From NCBI GenBank assembly GCA_951406725.2, contig OX597817.1, positions 111,786,001 to 111,850,000 on the forward strand: a DNA stretch of 64,000 nt. The letters are read 5' to 3'. Below, piece after piece: positions 17,431-45,539 of this stretch. Within the stretch, counting starts at the first letter, position 1. Each line of letters opens with the position of its first letter. Source of the DNA: Octopus vulgaris (taxonomy: Eukaryota). A program made the position numbers and the translations under genes. The notes beneath the pieces are model-generated. The model was not told where the DNA came from. It ran no database searches and saw only the letters and a list, made by a program, of their open reading frames with translations.

Positions 17431-20031
17431 AAGGAACAAAAAATCCTCAAGTGGGAGATAGTAGAACTGAGGAGTGGTGGCTTTGCGCCAGTTGAGAGAT
17501 TAACGGTTTAGAGGAATAGAGATGGGTGTCTTGCTGTAGATATATGGATATCCCAGTTGGAAAAGAAAGGAGAGTGAATTAGTAAGATAAGGAGAGCAAT
17601 ATTAAGAGATGAGGGTGAAGATGAGTCGGAACATGCCTGCGAGGGACTTTGAGTGTGATAAGAATAGGTGAAATGATACAGAGCTTTGGACTGAGTGAAT
17701 GGACAGAAGAGGTGATTGCAGCAAATGATGGAGAGAACTATAGGAGAGGTGCAGAGGCAAGAGTTGCTGTAAGTATGTGTGGGCATTGAGGTATTAATGA
17801 TGGAGAACAGCTCAAAGGGGAGAAGGTGCAGAAAGATGATTGGTGGAGACAGTAGGCAGGGGAAGATAATGGGATAATGGAAGTGGTTTTGGGTCAGGAA
17901 GAGGGGTAAATGAGACAGCTAGGGGATGTAGTATGTGCTTGTTCTGCCATCAGGTGATAGAGAAGTGATGGGTGTTAGAGGATCAAATATGGTGGAAATG
18001 TTAATGGGGCAGAGAGGATGAAGGTGGGGAAGAGCTCCTCACAGACAAGCATTACCTAGGTGGTTTTAGGATATCAATTCTACTGTGATGGGTGGGTTTT
18101 CTTGAATACAGCAAGGCACCAAATATCTCGGTCCTTTGTCATCTCCTTTGTTAGGCTCAGCATCAAGCATGCAATAACAGGAATAAATATGTATGTATGT
18201 GTACAGGATATATGAAATTTTTCACATTGGTCGACATTCATAATACATTGGCTGAGTTCAAGCTAAAATTGCATGGTATGAAAGCAAGTTAAAAAATATT
18301 GATGACTGCTTGATCTGTTACTTGATATACCAGTAAACCAACAGTCAAAACTAACCAAATATCACTATATGATTTAATAGTCACACTAACATACATGCAT
18401 CCCCCACTGAAGTGTGTATGTGTGTGTGTATCCCTTATAAAAATTTCCATAGACAAACATCTTCAACAATCAGCTATATCAATTTGTAGAAAGAAAAGTG
18501 TATACACTGGTCCAGTTGGTTGGATAATTTAAACACACTGTCAAGAATTATTTTAATGAGTGAGTTTAGTAATACAAAATTGAGTATTCTCATAATTATA
18601 TAATACATGTATGCACACGTAAATTCTCCCTTAATTTCACTCTCAAGGATAGCTAGATAATACAGTCTTCCCTCTTTCATTGCAATCCTCAAGATGTGCT
18701 TGACAAACTTTAATTGATATTTCAGCAGATGCTATTGGCAATGTGCAGAATATTCACAATCTATTACATACATTTAAAAAAATGTCACTTACGTGTACAC
18801 TTTTATTTTATTTAAAACATAGTGTGGTACCAAATTTTCAACACAGTACATATATATATATACATATATATGTTCTTTCGTTCCCCTTCTCTCACATTTC
18901 ATTGCCTTCTCTTCATGTTTACTGTGTCCGTCATTTTTTCTCGCCCCTTCTTATTTCTTCTGTCCCTTAGCCTTTACCTCTCTCTCTTCTCTCCCCACGT
19001 GACCAGTGTTCAGCCAAGCCTGACCTTTCTTTCTTGGTTTGGCTGTTGTTTGTGCAACATCTATATTCTTCCCTGTGCTTGTGAAATTTTGTATCTCTGC
19101 TGTAAGGCTTTACTTCCACACATGCCAGCTTAATTTAATTTGTCCCTAGTTGAAAGACACCTGTTGTTATGTCCTGTTATTTGTATTTGTGTAACTTTCT
19201 TCGTTTTTTGCCATCCTTGTTGTCTTATACATTCGCTGCTTTCTTCCAAGGAATCTAATGCTCTTAGCTTAGTTTTTCCTTAGGGCTGGCCAAATTGGAG
19301 CAATCTGAAGTATAACCAGCCGAAATTGCAAAGATAATCTGGAACTCAACTGAGGAAAGAAAACTCCGAATGACCCATCCTTGTTTTCTTTGTATTGTCT
19401 ATCTGAATGTTTTTTGTTCTTGTCCCATTTTGTGTACATACATACGTACATGCATATGTACATAAATACATACATACATACACCATTGCTCAGGATTAAA
19501 ATGGCATAGTTTGTATATATAATTCGACTAAGTAACATGTCATGCGGGTGTTTGAAGGATTCCAGGCCCTAACCTGCCATGGAAAATTGGGGGTGGGGTG
19601 TATGTGATTTTTTGAACACACCAAAAAGCTGTCAGTGGATATACTCTCCTTTGTGCCAGTCAGCACTGCATCTAACATGATCCATAGTATGGTTGACAGT
19701 CAAATGAATGTAGGTATAATGGAGATATTGTGTGTAAATGGGTACATTCTTGAAAGGGGCTGCAATGGGAGACAGCAATGGAGAAGTGAACTGTTGAAAT
19801 GCTGCAGAAGGTGAAAGGTTGACATTGGATTGCTGGTGTGACTGTAGAATAAGAAACATAAATTGAGCCTATGCAGTCACATGAGAATATGTAGTAATGA
19901 ATTACTTGAAAAAAATAAGGTGTAATAGCTTACTGTGTGGTTGGTGAGAGTAATTGGAGAATATACTTTGTTACTGAAGTCCATGCAGGAAAGTGCTTTG
20001 ATGATGCAGTCTTTGGGTTTGTTGGTATTAT

Positions 20032-34734: not shown

Positions 34735-34812
34735 AACTTCCGTTTTACCCATAGTTCATTTCACAAAAACGGAAGTTGTTCTTTCTCTTGAATCTGTGAT
34801 CGGGATTGAACG
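34735..34812 (+). promoter_or_regulatory. RPS12: RPS12 core promoter and non-coding exon 1 (TCT/5'TOP start, paired ETS sites)
   Basis: Inverted ETS sites aacttccgtttt (34735-34746) and aaaacggaagtt (34766-34777). Pyrimidine tract ttctttctctt (34779-34789). Donor cg|gtatgt at 34812/34813; next acceptor at 34942/34943. Confidence 0.8.
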
Positions 34813-34958
34813 GTATGTTACATTCTTTCAATCTATTAATGTATTTCATTGTTTATTGAGCATCGTCGTAATATTTAATAATTTATATCTAAAGGACATA
34901 ATCTAATACTTATTTTGTAATTTCTTTTCTAATAAATTTCAGCTAGTAACCCGAGAAA

Positions 34959-36105
34959 ATGTCTGATACTGAAAGGTAGGTACACGTTTATTCCTGTTTT
35001 ACCTCCATCTTCCTCATGCTATAAATGTTAATATTTCGTTTATTTGAATTTTGTATGCTTTTATTTGGTTTGAAAATACTTTTAATACTACATTTACTCA
35101 CTTAAAGGCTGACTAAAAGACTATTGATAGCTAAAAGATTAAAATAAAATATGTAATTTTATTACATATTAAAATATGTAATAAAATAATTATTACATAT
35201 TGATGTTTGTCATAACCTATAATTATGAATTATTACTCTTTACAGGGAAGATGCCCCAGCTCCTGCTGGCTCGCTCGATTTATACTCTGCTTTGCAGGAA
35301 ATTTTAAAGACCTCTCTCATTCACGATGGCTTAGAAAGAGGACTCAGCCAGTGTTGTAAAGCACTAGACAAGTATGTGTTGGTTTTCTTCCTAGTTTAAA
35401 TATTTGTGACGACTAAATTATGATTCCATGGTATTTAATTGCGAAAATAATGATATATGCGGCATTCCTTCAATATAACTCGACAAAATCAAAACATTTC
35501 ACTTGGGTTTTATTTCCGTGGGTTGTGTAGAACAGATATAACGAAATTATGCCAGTAATGTCTCATTTTAAATTTGAAGAAAAAAAAAGCCTTGCATATT
35601 TGTTCTTACCCGTTTCATGTGTATGTAAATTCCGCAAATTTCAAGCAGAAAACAATCGAACTGTCATTTGCTTCCACGGAAATGCCCGAAGTGAAATGTT
35701 TTGATTTTGTCGAGTTATATCGAAAGAATGCTAAGATTATTTTCTTCACTTTCTATTGATAGGTCGATGTGTGTGAGTGCTTCGCGTATGCTATTTAAGT
35801 GTTACGCTATAGTTTCTATGTCTCTAAACTATTTTTGTTTCCTCCCATCTAGACGAAAAGCCCATTTGTGTATCTTGGCAAACAGTGTAGATGAACCCAG
35901 CTATACTAAACTAGTTGAAGCTCTCTGCACTGAACACGGTATCAACCTCCTCAAAGTAAGAGCAATTATTTATTTACTTGGGTTTTAAAATTGATTTTTA
36001 AAATGCTTCTGCTGAATTTTTTTTCTAATTACTCGTGTCAGCTTTTGAAAGTAAAACCTTATGGATTTGTATCAGGTTATATTTTACTTTGGTGTGTATG
36101 CATGG

Positions 36106-36164
<59 letters not shown>

Positions 36165-39100
36165 GAGTCTCTCATGGTCAACCAACACGTTGCAATTTAA
36201 CTCCTTTTTGGAAAATTCTCCCAGTTAACCAGTTTAAATATGAAAATTTAATTTACCTATTTCTCTAATTGACTATGGAAACGGCTGTAGGGATAAGAAT
36301 TTCATATTATATTGATTTAACTATCTTTGAATAACCTGATGTCTATATATCAATTTTTCCATTTTCTTTTTCTCAATCATAAATCATTTAAACACCCATA
36401 TCCATCATTGCAAAATTAACGTATTTAGCTTTTCACGGAACACTTGTAAAAACCGGAAAGCTACGATGCAAACATCCCTTAAAGGATTATAGGCCCTTTG
36501 TATAGTTATATATAGCTGATATTTGCTTTTAACTTGTGATTCCATGTGTTACACAATTGGCTTGTAGCATTTAATACCCCTACATTAGCTGATATTAGTA
36601 CTGCAATTACTTGTCCAGTCATAACTTCTAATTGTTAAATTGCCTGTATAAAAACTCACGTTTTTTGTATTTTAAAGAGATGTCTACTATCGTCATCGTT
36701 ATACTTCCGCTTATCATGTTGGCATGTTATAGTATATCACCCTCGTAATTAGCACACGTCTGTCATTGATAAATCTTACTCTAATCCGACGGTGAAGAAA
36801 TACTTGATCAAAAATTGATATTGTCATGCATGTTAATCAAGGAGTAATTAGCTGCAACAAATGGATGTAAATTTATTCCAAATAACTTATATGTTTCTTA
36901 CTATTTGTCTCATGTAGTAGTCAAGTTAACTCCCTTACTTAAACCGACTGCCTTCAATTAATAACTGGTATGCGATTTTATAATTTTTATAGATGCTTAT
37001 TCAGCAAATATGAATAGTATTCTACAATGCAGCACATCTTGTGAAAGGTCATACCTCTGTATAGGTAATGTTCCTTCCAAGGTGAAAGAATTGAGTATGA
37101 TAATAAATGCTCCCTCTTTCTCAACCTCAAGTAAATTGTCATGGCTTTGCACTGAGCAAACATTTTCTACTATATTAGCCTCGTGAAGATGAAAAAGTAC
37201 TGTTGTTACTGATTATTAGACCAAGCTAGTTGGATATAGCTTCTGATATTGTTTCGCTTTCAGCTTGCACATGTTCATATTTCTGCAATAATCTGTCTAG
37301 ATGTATACGCCTGGAAGCCCGTTGTGTCTGTAGGTGCTCTTGTCTAGTAGAAGTCATGGTTATAAATGAGCAATATTACACAAGACAAGGTTTTTCCATC
37401 TGGCTATGGGGAATGTAACCTTACCTGGAAGCCAGTGTGGAGTTGCAAATAGGAAGAGCATTCAGTTTTAGAAAATACTTCAAATATTCAATCTAACCCA
37501 TGCAGGCATCGTAAGATGGACGTTTAATAACGATAGGCTACTGATTGGGGGGGGGTGTCTTTTATATATGAACAGTTTTTATTTTTACTAGTTATTGAAT
37601 TTTATGTAATGTTTGTTTTACTCAAATTATGGCTTTATTCAAGTGATTGATACTGGTTTCTTTTGCTTTGAATATTCCCATTATTAGTGATAACTTGGAT
37701 TTTTTTTCTTTCCTTAACTATTACTGTAGTGTTGGGTGTGATGATGATGAATGCTCCCTCTACTGATTATAAAATGAGGATTGCAGTGTCTGACCCAATT
37801 GTTGTTGAGAATGGTACAAAATACAAAATGCTTGGAAGTTTGCTTAGCTTCAGGCCAGGCATGATTGACTTATAATCAAAGATGGGTACTACTATAGCGT
37901 GTGATCTGCAGTAGTATCAGTGAAATGGGTTAGGGTTAGTCTGTATGCTAAAGTATAAATGGCCAAGTAGACTGTGGTACCCAAGATGTTTAAACTGTAA
38001 CTCTGGAACATTATTAGAATTAAGAATTGAATTTTATAGTCAAAGGTATTTGCATGGTCTCTCTCTCACTATCAAGTACTTTCTACAATGGCCCCCAGAC
38101 TTGATGATTTTGGGGATGATACTTTGAAAGGTGACATGTCATGTGTGTTGGGTTTGTCACTAGCTTCCCATCCTGTGTTTGCTTGCACCCCTGTAACTTA
38201 GCATTTTTGGCAAAAATAACCAATTCACACTATTCTGTCAAAAGTAATGTTTGTTTATTTACGCTATTGTGGATTACTTGTGCAATATTTTGTAGTTTGA
38301 GATTTTGATGAATTAACTATTAATTTTTAGAATAATATTGTAGGGTTGGCATGAGGTGCCAGGCCTGGCCAAAAGCAGGTAGAATATTTTGGCCAGTTAT
38401 GGCCGGTTTAAATGCAAAAGGGTTAAAGATGATACATTCAGCATTTCCATTTTTGGAGGTTTTGTACCTTGGTTGTTTTGCTTATTTTAAAAAACCTTTT
38501 ATACACTTGTCTAAGTTATGTGTTGGATATGACCGAGGGCTCTCTTTAATGATGTATAATATGGATTGCGACATCTGATCCAGCATAGAAAGTATTTTTA
38601 CCGTGTGGCTGGGGCTGTTTAACCCATGGTCATTCTTCATTAAGTAAATCCATGATCAGAAATCCCCTGTTACTTTTGTTTATGTCTCTTTATTATATAT
38701 GTGACTAATGTATTCTTTATTATAGTGGTAGGATGGGATTTAAAGAAAGTTTTGCTATCCTTAGCAGGTCAAGCAACTACTGAACCTCAACCATTGAGTT
38801 TCATGGTATTGTATAGATAGTTGTCTGAGGTACTAGAATCTTCCAATTTGGTGAAGTTTAAGGCCCAGTTGAGCTAAATGTAGAATGACAAAATCACTTA
38901 TCTTGAGGTATCCATTTCATTGCATTTATGTAAAGTTTATCTAAATTTTCTTTGAATCTGTTACAAAAAATATTTGTCCCAACATGCATAGCTGTTTTCA
39001 CCTTTTATTTTTCTGATATGTAACAATATTGTTTTATACTATGTAATATGGTTGGATATGATGAAGCTAAATGCTCCCTCTTCTGAAATGTCTATTGAGG

Positions 39101-39734
39101 ATTGCAATAACTGACCCAACCGTATTTTGTTACCCCCAAGTTTTCAACCATGAAGTGAAGCATTAAAATATATCACAAGGGGAAAAATATTATTTTGCTT
39201 AGTGAAAAAGGTGGGGAGATTCTCTTTTGCAAAAGAGATAATTTCACTGCAACATAGTTTATTCCATTTAGTGAATTTTTCATAAAGACAATGGTGGTTA
39301 CACTAAGTATCTGAATATTGGGACAGACTAGTAGCTACATGTTGGCTCCACTAACCTTTTGTCATTTTCATCACTGGAAACTTTTTACTTAATTCACATG
39401 CTAAGTCAAACCTCTTTGAACAGATTGCAATGGCAATCAGTCAAGGTTTATAGCTGATTTCATAGGTTGGTTTTTTTCTCTCTCTTATGCCCTCTTTCCA
39501 TTACATCCATAACTTAAAACATCTTGTGATACATCTGAAAGATTTTGCTGTTGCATTGGACAATGCTCTCTCTCTCTCCTAATACATAATGAAGATTGCA
39601 ATGATTCACCTATTAAGAATTTACAAAATATGACCTCAATCTAAACAACCTCTCAAATATACATTGATTTAAGTAGTCCTGTGATGGGACACTTCAGTCA
39701 TGATGCCTAAATTTCAAGTGCATGTAGGACTGCT

Positions 39735-39780
<46 letters not shown>

Positions 39781-42700
39781 GATAGATGGGTGAGTGAAAT
39801 TCAGCTGATGTTTTTAGTAAGTTATGCTTTATTTTCGTACACGTGTTGTGTCTGAAGTACTGAACCAGTGACTCTTGGTTAAATACTTTATTCTTGAAAA
39901 TACTATGGCTTATTTTCTGTTATATTGTTTTATACTATGTAATATGGTTGGATATGATGAAACTAAATGCTCCCTCTTCTGAAATATCTATTGAGGATTG
40001 CAATAACTGACCCAACCGTATTTTGTTACCCCCAAGTTTTCAACCATGAAGTGAAGCATTAAAATATATTACAAGGTGAAAAATATTATTTTCCTTAGTG
40101 GAAAAAGTGGGGAGATTCTCTTTTGCAAAAGAGATAATCTCACTGCAACATAGTTTTTTGTCTCAAATATTGCTTTCTTCTTGAACATAGTTTATTCCAT
40201 TTAGTGAATTTTTCTTAAAGACAATGGTAGTTACACTAGGTATCTGAATATTGGGGCAGGCTAAATTTCAAGTGCATGTAGGACTGCTTGTTTTATTTAT
40301 TTATATATATATAGATAGATGGGTGAGATTCAGCTGATGTTTTTAGTAAGTTATGCTTTATTTTCATACATGTGTTGTGTCTGAAGTACCTGAATGATCC
40401 AATTTTGTGATATTAGTGATCATTAGGTCTAACCTAGCTAAAGCATGCCGTCCTTATATTTTACTCCTTATTTCTAAGGAGTAAGTACACTTGTTTGGTA
40501 ATGTTCTGGTTGTAATGTTATTTTAAACAATGGAGTTGTTTGGTTGGGATAGATGCTCCTCCCTTTCCTGAAATACTTTTTGAGGGTTATAGTAACTAGT
40601 CCAATTGAGGCTAAGAAGTGTACAAAATTGGCATTGCCTGTAGAAACAGTAATACTGTTATTTAACCCGTTATTCAGCTTCAGTGAAATGTAATGCTTAT
40701 TCATGATTTTGAGAATATGATATTGTGATTGTTTTTTTTTTAAATGACATTGTAGGGTAGGTGAGAGAAGCACGATCTTGTCAGTTTGAACATAAAGCAG
40801 AATATTTGGGCTGGAAATAACAGGTTTAAATGCTAAAAGATTGAATCTAAATTGACTTCTGTGAAAATAGTTGTTTATTCATTTTTTTTAACTTTGCTAA
40901 TTTTATAGATATTATCACAGTGAAGTTTTGTCTTTCTTTTCAGGTTGAAGACAGCAAGAAGTTAGGCGAATGGGCTGGTCTTCGTCGTATTGATGTTGAA
41001 GGCAAAGCCAGAAAAGTGAATGGATGTGGCTGTGTTGTTGTAAAGGTAATGCAATCTATTCTATGATATAGTCTATTTTTAGAAATTTCTTTTAAATACT
41101 GTTTTATAAGCAGTGGCTTCATAGGTTATGAAGTTTCAAGGATGTGTTGGATAAATAACAAAGTATTTTTATTTGAAACACTGATCTGTTTGCAACCCCA
41201 GCGTCCTGTGGTTGTGAAGTGAACTCCTTGACTTCAAAGCCATGATTTTGTTCATTTTAATTCAGAGAGAGGGAAAATTTGTTTCTCTCTAGAGAATTGA
41301 ATTTTAGTGAAGAATTGCCTTTGATGTCATGATTGAAATAGTTTGCCCAAAAATGATTGAAAGATGATTTTAGAAAGTAAATGAATTTTCTGGAATTCCT
41401 CAGTTATTAGATATTAAGTTGCTTTTATTGTTTTGTATATAGTCTTGATAGGAATATGTAATGTTGATTTCTAAATTTGGCACAAAGCCATCAATTTCGG
41501 GGGAGGTGGTGAGTGAATTACATTGACCCTCAGTACTCAACTGGTATTTATTTTACCAACTCTGAAGAGATGAGGAGCAAAGTTGATCTTAGTGAAATTT
41601 CAACTCAAAGTGGAGATGGATGAAATCATTTTGCCCAGCATGCTAACAATTCTGCCAGCTCGCCACTTTGTTGGTTATGTAATGTTACTAGAAGTGAAGT
41701 ACTTGAAATATTCAGGGATACGACTTTTCTTTGCAGGTTACGTTTGCAATTCTGTCTTAACATTACTCATCCAATTGTTGAGTATTTTAACTCCCTCTGA
41801 CTTATAGGTTCTTGTATTGTGATTTGAACAACAGACCAGTGACTCTTGGTTAAATACTTTATTCTTGAAAATACTATGGCTTATTTTCTGTTGCATTGTT
41901 TTATACTATGTAATATGGTTGGATATGATGAAACTAAATGCTCCCTCTTCTGAAATATCTATTGAGGATTGCAATAACTGACCCAACCGTATTTTGTTAC
42001 CCCCAAGTTTTCAACCATGAAGTGAGGCATTAAAATATGTCACAAGGTGAAAAATATTGTTTTGCTTAGTGGAAAAAATGGAGAGATTCTCTTTTGCAAA
42101 AGAGATCTTACTGCAACATTAAAAAAAAACTGAAGTTACAAGAAGTTATTCACAACTCCCAACATATTAAACTGCCTTGTTCTCACGTTAAATATGACTT
42201 TACTGTCACAAAGAAATTATCAAGCTTAATAACAATCTATTAAGCAACAACTACCCCATATACATACTATCCACTCCAATTATGAAAAAAAAGAGGGGAT
42301 GGAACCAATAAACTCTCCACTGTCTGTCTACCCTATGTGAAAGGCCTCTCTCAAACGATACAAGTATTCAAGAGTAATACAACACTTCGCAAATATCTCC
42401 TTCGAGTAAAACCACCAATAGAAGAGAATATGACCAAAAACTGCGTACTCCATCCCATGCAGCTGTGGTAGGTTACGCAAAGGTGACACATGCCACCCCA
42501 TCAAAATAAGGGTGGACGAACATGGCAAAGCTGTGACATGAGATATTGATAAATCAGATATAGCTGATCATGTATGGAATAATGGAGACCACTGGAAAAT
42601 ACGAAAACTAAACAGAAGCAGCCCATATGCTAGGACACAACAACCTCCTAAGTGCAGATATGAGTAGCATATGGGAACCAGTATTAAGGAAGGATAGGAA

Positions 42701-43273
42701 AATATTAGATTTATAAGCCTTAAAATTCACTCCATAATTGCCCATGAGCATTGTGGTGAACTCGGGCTACTAACCCCAAGATTCCAAGTTTGATTCCTGG
42801 CAGTGATCTGAATAATAACATCGAAAAATACCTTAGGAATGAGAACCCAGATTCGAAATTTCCTCCAAGATACCTGATGAAGGCTGGAGGGTATATAAGC
42901 CGAAACATGTTAACAACAAAGATGAGAGCAAATATCCATCAAATGCAAATAATGTACATTTCCCATCTCTTAAATATAGGACTGAAAGAAGTAAAGTTAT
43001 ATCACAATTGACTTGGATAAATGAAATTATTTGTATGTGTTTAAAAAAATTTAGGACAAAGTATAATTTGCAGCTTGGTGTAAATTTTGTGTGCTATATC
43101 ATCTTATTGCTCAGCAGGTATGACTATGTTGGTCTTTGATGCAACTAGTGTTTTAAGTACCTAACATTTTGTTCTTCAGAGTTAAATTTTTGCTATTTGT
43201 TTTATTTCAGGACTATGGAAAAGAATCACAAGCACTTGATGTTTTGAATGAATATTTCAAGTCCAAGAAATAA
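34959..43273 (+). CDS. RPS12: 40S ribosomal protein S12 (eS12), 136 aa
   Basis: Exons 34959-34975, 35246-35371, 35853-35955, 40944-41045, 43211-43273; all introns GT-AG with consistent phases (411 nt). Peptide [82 protein letters not shown] at 43308-43313. Confidence 0.97.
35462..35731. repeat. ~60-bp inverted repeat (MITE-like) in an RPS12 intron
   Basis: gcattccttcaatataactcgacaaaatcaaaacatttcactt...tttccgtgg versus ccacggaaat...aagtgaaatgttttgattttgtcgagttatatcgaaagaatgc. Confidence 0.85.
37091..37120 (+). pseudogene. Truncated SNORD100-like copy
   Basis: atgataa (mutated box C) followed by the guide aatgctccctct; no 3' half. Confidence 0.5.
37731..37799 (+). ncRNA. SNORD100: Box C/D snoRNA, SNORD100-like (copy 1)
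   Basis: Box C gtgatga 37738-44; guide atgctccctcta; D' ctga 37763-66; C' atgagga 37774-80; D ctga 37790-93; terminal stem ttggg/cccaa. GCTCCCTCTACTGA..ATGAGGA matches recalled vertebrate SNORD100, which is also hosted in RPS12. Confidence 0.88.
38521..38585 (+). ncRNA. Diverged SNORD100-like copy (possible pseudogene)
   Basis: Terminal stem tgttggat/atccagca, guide-like ggctctcttta, ggattgc and box D ctga are retained. Box C has decayed to atgaccg and D' to atga. Confidence 0.6.
39045..39126 (+). ncRNA. SNORD100: Box C/D snoRNA, SNORD100-like (copy 2)
   Basis: C atgatga 39058-64; guide atgctccctctt; D' ctga; C' ttgagga; D ctga 39111-14; long stem aatatggttgg/ccaaccgtatt. Confidence 0.85.
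39551..39612 (+). pseudogene. Decayed SNORD100-like copy
   Basis: aatgctctctctctctcctaa...atgaagattgcaatgattcacc. The guide has turned into (CT)n and all boxes are mutated. Confidence 0.5.
39941..40022 (+). ncRNA. SNORD100: Box C/D snoRNA, SNORD100-like (copy 3)
   Basis: Differs from copy 2 at about two positions; all boxes and the terminal stem are intact. Confidence 0.85.
41912..41993 (+). ncRNA. SNORD100: Box C/D snoRNA, SNORD100-like (copy 4, last intron)
   Basis: Identical by eye to copy 3; lies in intron 41046-43210. Confidence 0.85.
42121..42980 (+). mobile_element. Penelope-like element remnant (GIY-YIG endonuclease plus terminal repeat with hammerhead motif)
   Basis: From 42328, across frameshifts: [74 protein letters not shown]-ggct..agcc-GAAAC at 42874-42906. 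Confidence 0.85.
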
Positions 43274-45539
43274 CTTCTTATAGCATTCTGTGAGCATATG
43301 CTATGTTAATAAAGTGTTTGTAAAACAGACTTTCACTGTATTGTTTCAGTTCGGCTTGGTATTTTAATAAATGTCCTGATAAATACTTAAGGTGACAAAA
43401 ATTCAAATCACCATAAAATACTTGAGATCTGGGCTACATGTTGAATGTGGCAGTATAGCAGCAGGGTCACTAGCTTAATTGCTGGAATAATAGCAGCTGT
43501 GTGTAAGGAGCATAAAATACTAGAATACTATATTTCTGGACTTAGGTGCTTTTGTTTCTATTCAGTGTAGCAGGCTGTATTTAAATTGGCCAGTTTTGTC
43601 TAATATTGCCATCTGTTTAAAGATAAATATCTGATCTTTGATGTCTAGTTCCTGTTTTGAGTTTTCTTCATGCAAATTCCACTTGCTAGATATCTTCCAA
43701 GATTAGGAGACAATGTGATTATTTTAGCCTGATGACATTGCCAGGCCTTGTGATATTGGGTGGATGGGGGATAAATCTGACTGCCATATTGGAAACTGAA
43801 CTATTTGTAAAGTAATTGTAGAATGCTTTCCTTCCAGATAACTAGCGTTAGTTTTGGTGTAGTCCACCTATTGCCTCCATTTGTTGTTAATGACATATGC
43901 TGACTAAATTTGGTTTGACAGTGTTCTCTCAGCATTCTCTTTTAGTCCAATAACTGAACCATACAAGTTTAAAATCCAGCAGTGAATTAGTTTCGAGGCT
44001 GATTGCTTAGTTCCCTTTCCTTTCACTCAAATTTGACATTTATGCCCCATTTCATTGGATTTGTACTGTTGACGTACATAGCAGATGACTTTGAAGGGAT
44101 CTAAAGGATGAAGTGATTAAAGCAAATGTCAATGCTGGATGACATGGAAGAGGTAAGGAACTACTGCACTAATAAAGTACAGACAGACATGATAAAGGTT
44201 GTTATCCACTGGAATTTTTGGAACAACTTATGTCACAAAATTTCTTTCCTCAATTTTTGCAATTTGATAATGTGGAATGGCACTAATTCCCAATTAAGTG
44301 CTTGCATTAAAACTGATTTAGAATTTGATCTTTGTCCCAGATCTTACTTTAAATCTATATTTTCATGGTGTTTATTCCATCCTTTGTGTGTGCTTTTAAC
44401 CTTGTCACTCTGTACTCCCACTTGAATGGGAATAGGATGTCATCTCTGAATTCTTGATAAAGCTATAACAAACACATAGAAAAAAAATATAGCTGATTTT
44501 GTTCAGTTTGGTTGCAACCATTACCCTTGAGTTGCATATGCAACATTTTTTTTGTTTTGCTCAGGTGGAGGGTTAGGATGGTTGATAGTAAAGTAGGTCA
44601 GATTTGACATTTCTAGCAGGTCACCTATGTAGAAGCTGGGACATTGTTGAATGTCAGTTTACTAGCATACCTGTCATCAAAAAAATGGGAGAAACCACTG
44701 GTAAATGTTAAGTATATACACATTCATATGCAATATTGAATAATATACTAATAAAGACAATCTGTTAATACATGCTCACATGGATCAGACAGATTTTGTA
44801 CTGTTGGATGTAATTCCTGTTGCCAACCTGATCCAGTTAAGGTAATATTTCACCATGTTCAGACATGATTACATGTAAGATTGGAAATGATGCTCTGTAT
44901 GGGTAAATCAAACTTCCATCAAGTCTATCGTTGGTGTAAACTGTCTCGTAGTTCCTGACTATGGTTTATATATGCACATGTAACAACTTAAGGGCAACTG
45001 AATAAATTTGTGACATGCAAAGTCCCTTCTCAACCTAAAGTGACATGGTGGTTTGAATGGCGTAGTTGACAGGGCCAGGAGAGCAGAAATGGAACTCCAT
45101 CTGCCAATAGGTACTTTTATTTCTGGTTGAACAAAGGACCAGCGATTCTTCCTTAAATACTTTGTCCTTGAAAATACTGAGACATTTTCGGTTGTATGAG
45201 CATAAGGCCTGACAGTAAAGTCATATTTAACATGTTGGGAGTTGTTAGTAACGTCTTGTAACTTCAATTTTCTGATCCTTGAGGATTGTACAGCCTAAAT
45301 AATGGTATTGTCGAGCGGATATGTACAATTGATATTATATGTTAGCTCTTAAAACTTGTAGCCTAGTAAGTTCTCCTTAGAACAACACATTGCTTAGTCT
45401 GCCTAATATAGATCCAGCTGTCCAAATGGACAGTAGCTTGGTAGATAAAGCAGTTAATAGGAAAATGGAAAACCTGGCCCATCAGGAATCACCACCAAGA
45501 TCCTTAAAATATCTGGCCTAGTCACCTGCATAGTTAATC

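Follow-up and report, generated by a model that had tools for sequence, protein, structure and literature searches.

The RPS12 gene and its snoRNA copies

The gene for ribosomal protein eS12 (RPS12) lies in the 64,000-nucleotide (nt) stretch of Octopus vulgaris DNA analysed here – the window, positions 111,786,001 to 111,850,000 of contig OX597817.1, to which all coordinates without a prefix refer – and contains eight SNORD100-like small nucleolar RNA (snoRNA) copies of the box C/D class, seven of them in one intron (35956–40943) and the eighth in the next. An earlier note on this DNA had counted seven copies, six of them in the large intron; all seven were found, together with an additional one at 40538–40607 (20.2 bits), and the single-intron array stands, albeit with seven members of which only three are intact.

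The placement in RPS12, also proposed in that note, is borne out by the translation of the exons, which gives a 136-residue eS12/RPS12 protein from five coding exons (one of them, 35853–35955, matching eS12 at E 1e-11), and by spliced joints in contigs assembled from four presumed RNA runs. These joints (34812/34943, 34975/35246, 35371/35853, 35955/40944 and 41045/43211) are all of the GT..AG type; the one that defines the large intron, 35955/40944, is found in three of the four runs, the fourth showing matching loose ends. The depth of such contigs reveals neither the ends of RNAs nor their levels and, being flat across the large intron, is uninformative for or against snoRNA-ended long non-coding RNAs (sno-lncRNAs).

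Four copies, named here by their first positions, have boxes C (RUGAUGA) and D (CUGA) near their ends, D' and C' inside and a terminal stem, and a scan for boxes, stem and ribosomal RNA (rRNA) complementarity across 34801–43300 returned exactly these four, the same that the earlier note had listed as complete. One of them (37731) represents an old type with a terminal stem of 7 bp, the other three (39045, 39941 and 41912) a young type with stems of 11 bp. Two or more intact snoRNAs thus share a spliced intron – three, in 35956–40943 – although the earlier emphasis on several intact copies per intron was overstated, as two of the three are near-identical recent duplicates. The intact copies are, as had been claimed, far from the 3' splice site: their D boxes precede it by 3150 (37731), 1829 (39045), 933 (39941) and, in the next intron, 1229 nt (41912). 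The four decayed copies were recovered with a profile built from the large intron's three intact copies only (13.0–20.2 bits; starts at 37094, 38521, 39561 and 40549), the best score among 20 shuffled 64-kb windows being 7.5 bits. The features of the locus, all on the + strand, are as follows, with the evidence for each in brackets.

Ending at 34812, +: RPS12 exon 1, non-coding (RNA contig joint)
34943–34975, +: RPS12 exon 2, with the ATG at 34959 (RNA contig joints, translation)
35246–35371, +: RPS12 exon 3 (joints, translation)
35853–35955, +: RPS12 exon 4 (joints, translation, eS12 match at E 1e-11)
35956–40943, +: large RPS12 intron, 4,988 nt, with three intact and four decayed copies (GT..AG joint)
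37091–37160, +: decayed copy, guide intact, C box changed, D' gone (13.0 bits with the intact-only profile; sequence)
37731–37799, +: intact old-type copy, C at 37738, D' at 37763, D at 37790 (boxes, stem, guide pairing)
38521–38586, +: decayed copy, D box and 10-bp stem retained, C box, guide and D' changed (18.1 bits; fold)
39045–39126, +: intact young-type copy with 11-bp external stem, in cassette X, 39026–39330 (scan, fold)
39549–39614, +: decayed copy, C, D' and D gone, guide now a CT run (16.9 bits)
39707–39864, +: segment Y with an (AT)n hairpin, whose second copy, 40261–40394, belongs to the same local duplication (sequence comparison)
39941–40022, +: intact young-type copy with 11-bp external stem, in cassette X', 39922–40263 (scan, fold)
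40538–40607, +: additional decayed copy, young-type core and old-type 3' flank (20.2 bits; core and flank comparison)
40944–41045, +: RPS12 exon 5 (joints, translation)
41046–43210, +: last RPS12 intron, 2,165 nt, with one intact copy (joint)
41912–41993, +: intact young-type copy, the sole copy in the last intron, in cassette X'', 41893–42119 (scan)
43211–43273, +: last coding RPS12 exon, through the stop codon (joints, translation)

Elsewhere in the 64-kb window, a custom RNA model gave nothing above 8.9 bits besides the eight copies, which it recovers by construction. A weak profile match at 18677–18730 (–) has neither a box C nor a guide and was set aside as chance. As Tandem Repeats Finder returned only two (AT)n runs from the window, the array is no satellite; and a DNA search of the genome assembly (2.8 Gb, 227 contigs) with a young copy gave three matches, all within the window, so that no dispersed near-identical young copies were found.

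Both snoRNA-bearing introns also contain fragments of high-copy repeats (38190–38430, 40700–40850, 41470–41680 and 42250–43000), where the depth of contigs from DNA runs reaches thousands. A small RPS12 intron contains a 46-nt inverted repeat resembling a miniature inverted-repeat transposable element (35462–35507 and 35686–35731, 93% identical, arms 178 nt apart), which many contigs from the RNA runs cover.

Integrity of the assembly

Near-identical neighbours invite the suspicion that the three young cassettes could be a product of faulty assembly: no difference separates 39941 from 41912 across 80 nt, and the upstream join of 39941 (about 39843–39925) is bridged by no contig among those listed. 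The cassettes nevertheless differ in 19 of 230 shared columns, with private changes in each, and their flanks differ. DNA contigs from four runs, representing four studies and four organisms, cover 37731 in all four, as they do the exit of the last cassette (41996–42233 or beyond); others run from unique flank into 39045 (run X2) and into 41912 (run X16), and an RNA contig (run X9, 40088–40973) covers flank specific to the 39941 cassette. The older copies, moreover, cannot stem from such an artefact. Assembly duplication is therefore unlikely, in agreement with the earlier note, and as an account of the three cassettes it deserves next to no weight.

In one run (X5, organism B), two contigs across 37516–38973 have depths of 96 and 90, against 48–56 in their neighbours. 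This hints at a further duplication including 37731, contig depth being no measure of copy number.

Family identity and predicted rRNA target

At gathering level, Rfam has no match in the window. Relaxed searches with the SNORD100 model (RF00609) match 37731 at 30.2 bits (E 0.0042), 39947 and 41918 at 27.3 (E 0.028) and 39051 at 24.4 (E 0.18), 37731 being the best match to this model in the genome among the 60 scored of 113,389 candidates. The search with this model, which the earlier note had proposed, thus finds the copies, but none of them reaches the cut-off of 58 bits, and other C/D models score alike – U18 with 27.7 bits (E 0.71) on the young copies and SNORD11B with 29.4 on the old one – so that bit scores alone cannot name the family. 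These two points weigh against the assignment, and with the gathering score unreached the copies are filed as SNORD100-like rather than as members of the Rfam family.

In all four intact copies, the element preceding box D' pairs over 11–12 nt with positions 633/634–644 of the genome's own 18S rRNA, whose gene is about 2,640 nt long (in 37731, 37751–37761 pairs with 634–644), and the fifth base before D' lies opposite G637. The register is that of the Rfam SNORD100 consensus, and the site corresponds to human G436. The guide reads AUGCUCCC, compared with GGCUCCC in the consensus, and the change at its 5' end matches an A in the octopus 18S rRNA. The guide score was reached in 10 of 1000 shuffles, and a perfect 11-nt match anywhere arose in 61 of 2000 shuffles of a whole copy. 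From sponges to vertebrates, SNORD100 is encoded within RPS12, and its human target is 18S G436 (Perina et al., PMC3412847). There is hardly any doubt that the copies, encoded on the sense strand of RPS12 introns, are a SNORD100-like box C/D RNA, as first suggested; they are likely the functional ortholog of SNORD100, and the four intact ones are predicted to guide 2'-O-methylation of 18S G637.

The target search covered the 18S and 28S rRNAs of the genome. In the old copy 37731, a second element, before box D (37778–37789), pairs over 12 nt (including two G–U pairs) with 28S rRNA about 40 nt from its 3' end, a score equalled in 4 of 1000 shuffles; 28S U4850, in our own numbering, is accordingly a candidate target of this guide, which is absent from the young copies. 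A preprint on the octopus ribosome (PMC13321053) contains neither 'methylation' nor 'snoRNA' in its main text.

A second array in RPL4 and other C/D families

The earlier note presented the locus alone, and its account of RPS12 needs widening, for the tandem intronic layout recurs in RPL4 of the same genome. All five U18 matches lie on the same strand, spread over 5.2 kb inside a single 6,977-nt RPL4 intron (locus L011:2384–9360, on contig C3). The intron was delimited by protein alignment: the flanking exons encode residues 281–307 and 309–360 of uL4 in PDB entry 9eho, the Octopus bimaculoides ribosome (PMC13321053), the residue between them being a split codon. Variable columns number 2 of 48 at functional positions, 2 of 25 in the spacer between them and 125 of 196 in the flanks, and the first U18 copy has an unrelated 5' flank.

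Among the seven further C/D families searched, five form tight same-strand arrays. Besides U18, there are six U14 matches in 4.4 kb (C2:106457186–106461623), along with damaged copies and, upstream, another 18S guide; nine matches to the U31 model in 10.7 kb (C6:131056400–131067086); eleven to the Am982 model in 17.4 kb (C12:80135254–80152685), with 13-bp stems, one other guide included at C12:80143844 and one more match elsewhere; and three weak matches to the SNORD33 model in 1.8 kb (E 0.08–0.24, below the cut-off), which the guide scan did not recover. The U14 and Am982 matches are also below their cut-offs, yet have rRNA guides of 12–14 nt. The remaining families are U15, with two matches 13.9 kb apart and one elsewhere, and U24, with a single match.

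Beside the SNORD33-model matches, at C3:898148–899804 (–), there are three C/D candidates with a 12–13-nt guide to 28S U2506, beyond which lies a reading frame for an endonuclease and reverse transcriptase like those of long interspersed elements. The two neighbouring U15 matches (C21:35140543 and 35154394) fall within a duplicated block, at a distance of about 13.8 kb, and a SNORD52-like match accompanies the second.

Among these families, copies per intron can be counted only for the host of U18. No recognisable coding exons were found at the U14, U31, Am982-like, U15, U24 and C3:898148–899804 loci, and splice-matrix scores between the copies of the other loci are mixed; the hosts of the arrays other than U18 appear to be non-coding, and their copies may be one per intron.

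Probable duplication history and sequence conservation

Both the resemblances and the differences among the copies point to a layered history, as the earlier note recognised when it spoke of birth and death at several ages: there are old and young types and four decayed copies. The young cassettes (39026–39330, 39922–40263 and 41893–42119) are 92–94% identical, and their 19 differing columns include 6, 2 and 11 private changes, respectively. Segment 39707–39864 was duplicated along with them to 40261–40394. Old and young cores, by contrast, are 77% identical, and their flanks align poorly (51–66% with many gaps).

The decayed copy 40538 bridges the two types. Its core matches the young type at 26 of 38 positions and the old at 22 of 38, and its flank matches the old type at 23 of 35; the flank score against the old type is 34, compared with a 99th percentile of 23 and a maximum of 36 among random pairs. 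With a core of the young type and a flank of the old one, 40538 points to the large intron as the likely birthplace of both lineages. The copy in the last intron lies between pieces of a sequence that recurs at 45093–45271, one piece being inverted, and is probably a later insertion. The low-copy sequence in question, downstream of the gene, is found split and partly inverted at 41789–41896 and 42126–42208, and part of it also precedes 39941. On the whole, the array is likely to have arisen by repeated local duplication, for which unequal crossing-over or template switching, accompanied by birth and death of copies, would be the possible routes.

The pattern of sequence change bears on whether more than one copy per intron has been of use to the animal. 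Between the old and young types, 2 of 33 box and guide columns differ, compared with 12 of 24 others (p 2e-4), and among the three young cassettes the variable columns are 0 of 55 functional and 12 of 145 flanking ones (p 0.018). Several observations weigh in the opposite direction. Restricted to the large intron's two young copies, the comparison falls short of significance (0 of 55 versus 6 of 148, p 0.15), and about 34 nt directly past the stem are likewise invariant, so that gene conversion fits as well as selection. The functional columns, furthermore, were set by ourselves on copies recognised by their boxes, which biases the variable count downwards; the spacer columns of the U18 array show conservation too (2 of 25 vary), as conversion could also bring about; and four of the large intron's seven copies have decayed, which indicates that extra copies are often dispensable.

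A rival reading sees effectively one working copy per intron – 37731 in the large one and 41912 in the last – and takes 39045 and 39941 for neutral duplicates of recent date that gene conversion has kept alike on their way to decay. That the young pair lacks a significant signal of its own, that the invariant tract extends beyond the snoRNA, that four neighbouring copies have decayed and that both bases distinguishing 39045 are polymorphic (runs X2 and X18) all agree with such neutrality. It sits poorly, however, with 40538, which puts the young-type core into the large intron at an early date, and with the last-intron copy, whose position amid split, partly inverted older sequence is that of a later insertion; in RPL4, moreover, all five detected U18 copies share one intron, the first of them with an unrelated 5' flank. 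We regard neutral duplication as unlikely, and think that two or more copies per intron have probably been functional.

Possible splicing inside the large intron

The earlier note had offered recursive or alternative splicing as one way to release several copies. Through hidden exons, non-coding or poison, or through sites of recursive splicing, the intron would be split so that each copy obtains its own lariat, and transcripts with such exons would be removed by nonsense-mediated decay and thus dropped from contigs. There is indeed an AG 60–88 nt past each intact RPS12 copy, and in RPL4 a donor-like site (score 9.4) occurs in three repeat units (3342, 6006 and 7163), with a conserved AG-ending stretch after four of the five U18 copies. 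By a splice-site matrix built from just ten true introns, however, the AGs behind the RPS12 copies score from –2.1 to 3.6, compared with 7.5–15.1 for true acceptors, and 27–90% of random intron positions score as high. The best exon-like pairs between intact copies reach 11.4 and 9.7, which is below the shuffled median of 13.3 and far from the 16.8–25.8 of true exons, and no internal GT..AG joint is present among the 15 listed of 26 joints in the RNA contigs, which drop rare isoforms. A route through hidden exons or recursive splicing is thus unsupported, and quite improbable as an explanation of the array.

Possible routes of processing

The routes listed in the earlier note – endonucleolytic separation, recursive or alternative splicing, and sno-lncRNA-like products – form a sound set of possibilities. 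Human C/D RNAs favour a position some 50 nt ahead of the branch point, and C/D assembly is uncoupled from splicing where external stems are long (PMC5519232). As no copy is near the branch point, the core proteins would load independently of splicing, favoured by long external stems; the 11-bp stems of the young copies are matched by 2.5% of random intron pairs. Exonucleases acting alone on the debranched intron would halt at the outermost loaded copies. Since the arrays have been repeatedly amplified and several copies per intron conserved, we infer that the extra copies give a product, and a cut by an endonuclease within the 0.8–1.3 kb spacers, followed by exonucleolytic trimming to each snoRNP (small nucleolar ribonucleoprotein), would provide it, much as in polycistronic clusters elsewhere. 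EndoU/XendoU is a candidate for such a cut: XendoU frees intronic snoRNAs in Xenopus, and Rnt1 separates polycistronic snoRNAs in yeast (PMC10557570). As a whole, this chain – duplication, splicing-independent loading, and internal cutting with trimming to separate RNAs – is the account that we favour among those considered, though tentatively. It is at odds with some of the evidence: the external pairing of the old copy is ordinary (10.5% of random pairs equal it), as is that of two of the five U18 copies (15–16%); a search of the spacers for hairpins gave no common cleavage signal, the strongest being (AT)n runs and a high-copy repeat; and for Drosophila a single C/D RNA per intron is reported (PMC3089462).

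The missing shared signal would be explained, as would the conservation of several copies, if there were no endonuclease at all. The copies, far from the branch point, would then load occasionally, mostly leaving one mature snoRNA per intron from the copy that happened to load, with extra copies raising the yield; where two loaded, the product would be a long RNA with snoRNA ends, about 965, 1388 or 2284 nt in length. This would require the known debranch-and-trim pathway only, and in mammals two snoRNAs in an intron do give rise to sno-lncRNAs (PMC11028025). In arrays of 5–11 copies, however, many guides would end up locked in long RNAs through double loading if loading were anything but very rare, and the strong stems of the young copies should promote loading. 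Processing without an endonuclease is, on balance, rather doubtful.

Wider significance and comparison with known systems

In the animals reviewed, C/D snoRNAs assemble in connection with splicing and are for that reason mostly found one per intron, at a short distance from the branch point. RPS12 and RPL4 break both habits, with three and five intact copies, respectively, 0.2–7 kb inside one intron and with signs that several have been maintained; the octopus thus likely departs from the usual layout of one guide per intron. Should the copies be released as separate mature RNAs, a polycistronic C/D pathway like that of plants or yeast would be at work in an animal, and its enzyme can be sought; otherwise, housekeeping genes of the octopus would be a source of snoRNA-capped long RNAs. 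A bolder reading, which is possible but speculative, would have octopuses shift their methylation-guide snoRNAs genome-wide to tandem arrays in single introns, through either a splicing-uncoupled endonuclease route or abundant snoRNA-capped long RNAs from ribosomal-protein genes, with guide dosage set by copy number and arrays changing between close species.

As a baseline, the earlier note had taken the vertebrate rule of one snoRNA per intron. Animals do predominantly follow it, but intronic snoRNA clusters are a named category (PMC11028025), and in Drosophila they are numerous for H/ACA RNAs (PMC3089462). Our literature search, beyond whose reach most subscription papers lay, brought up no paper on intronic arrays of snoRNAs in cephalopods or other molluscs; for the giant squid, the genome paper gives snoRNA counts only (PMC6962438).

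SNORD100/HBII-429 (RF00609) has the same host gene as the octopus copies and the same C/D anatomy, and its D' guide aims at the corresponding 18S position in the same register (human G436, octopus G637). The octopus copies differ in scoring below the Rfam cut-off, in their shorter 3' half and in a guide that has changed along with the octopus 18S rRNA; octopus RPS12, furthermore, has eight copies, seven of them in one intron, and the old copy has its candidate 28S guide.

Intronic clusters have reportedly been described in rice and Chlamydomonas as well. These clusters, like those of Drosophila, resemble the octopus array in placing several snoRNAs within one host-gene intron; the octopus array consists of C/D RNAs of one family, 0.8–1.3 kb apart, with decayed copies interspersed.

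Mammalian sno-lncRNAs – from the SNORD116 pairs of 15q11–q13, and SLERT (PMC11028025) – likewise involve at least two same-strand C/D snoRNAs per intron, which could protect both ends of an RNA. The octopus host is instead a ribosomal-protein gene and its RNAs are canonical rRNA guides.

Copy gain by recombination, cis-duplication and intron-to-intron movement of snoRNAs are established in vertebrates (PMC6984369, PMC11028025); in them, too, snoRNAs duplicate locally, families expand, spare copies decay and guides diverge. There, however, copies predominantly end up one per intron, whereas the octopus has at least two coding hosts in which they accumulate inside a single intron. The RNA, its host and intronic clusters as a category were thus known before; what the octopus adds are homogeneous C/D arrays in single introns of animal ribosomal-protein genes, twice in one genome.

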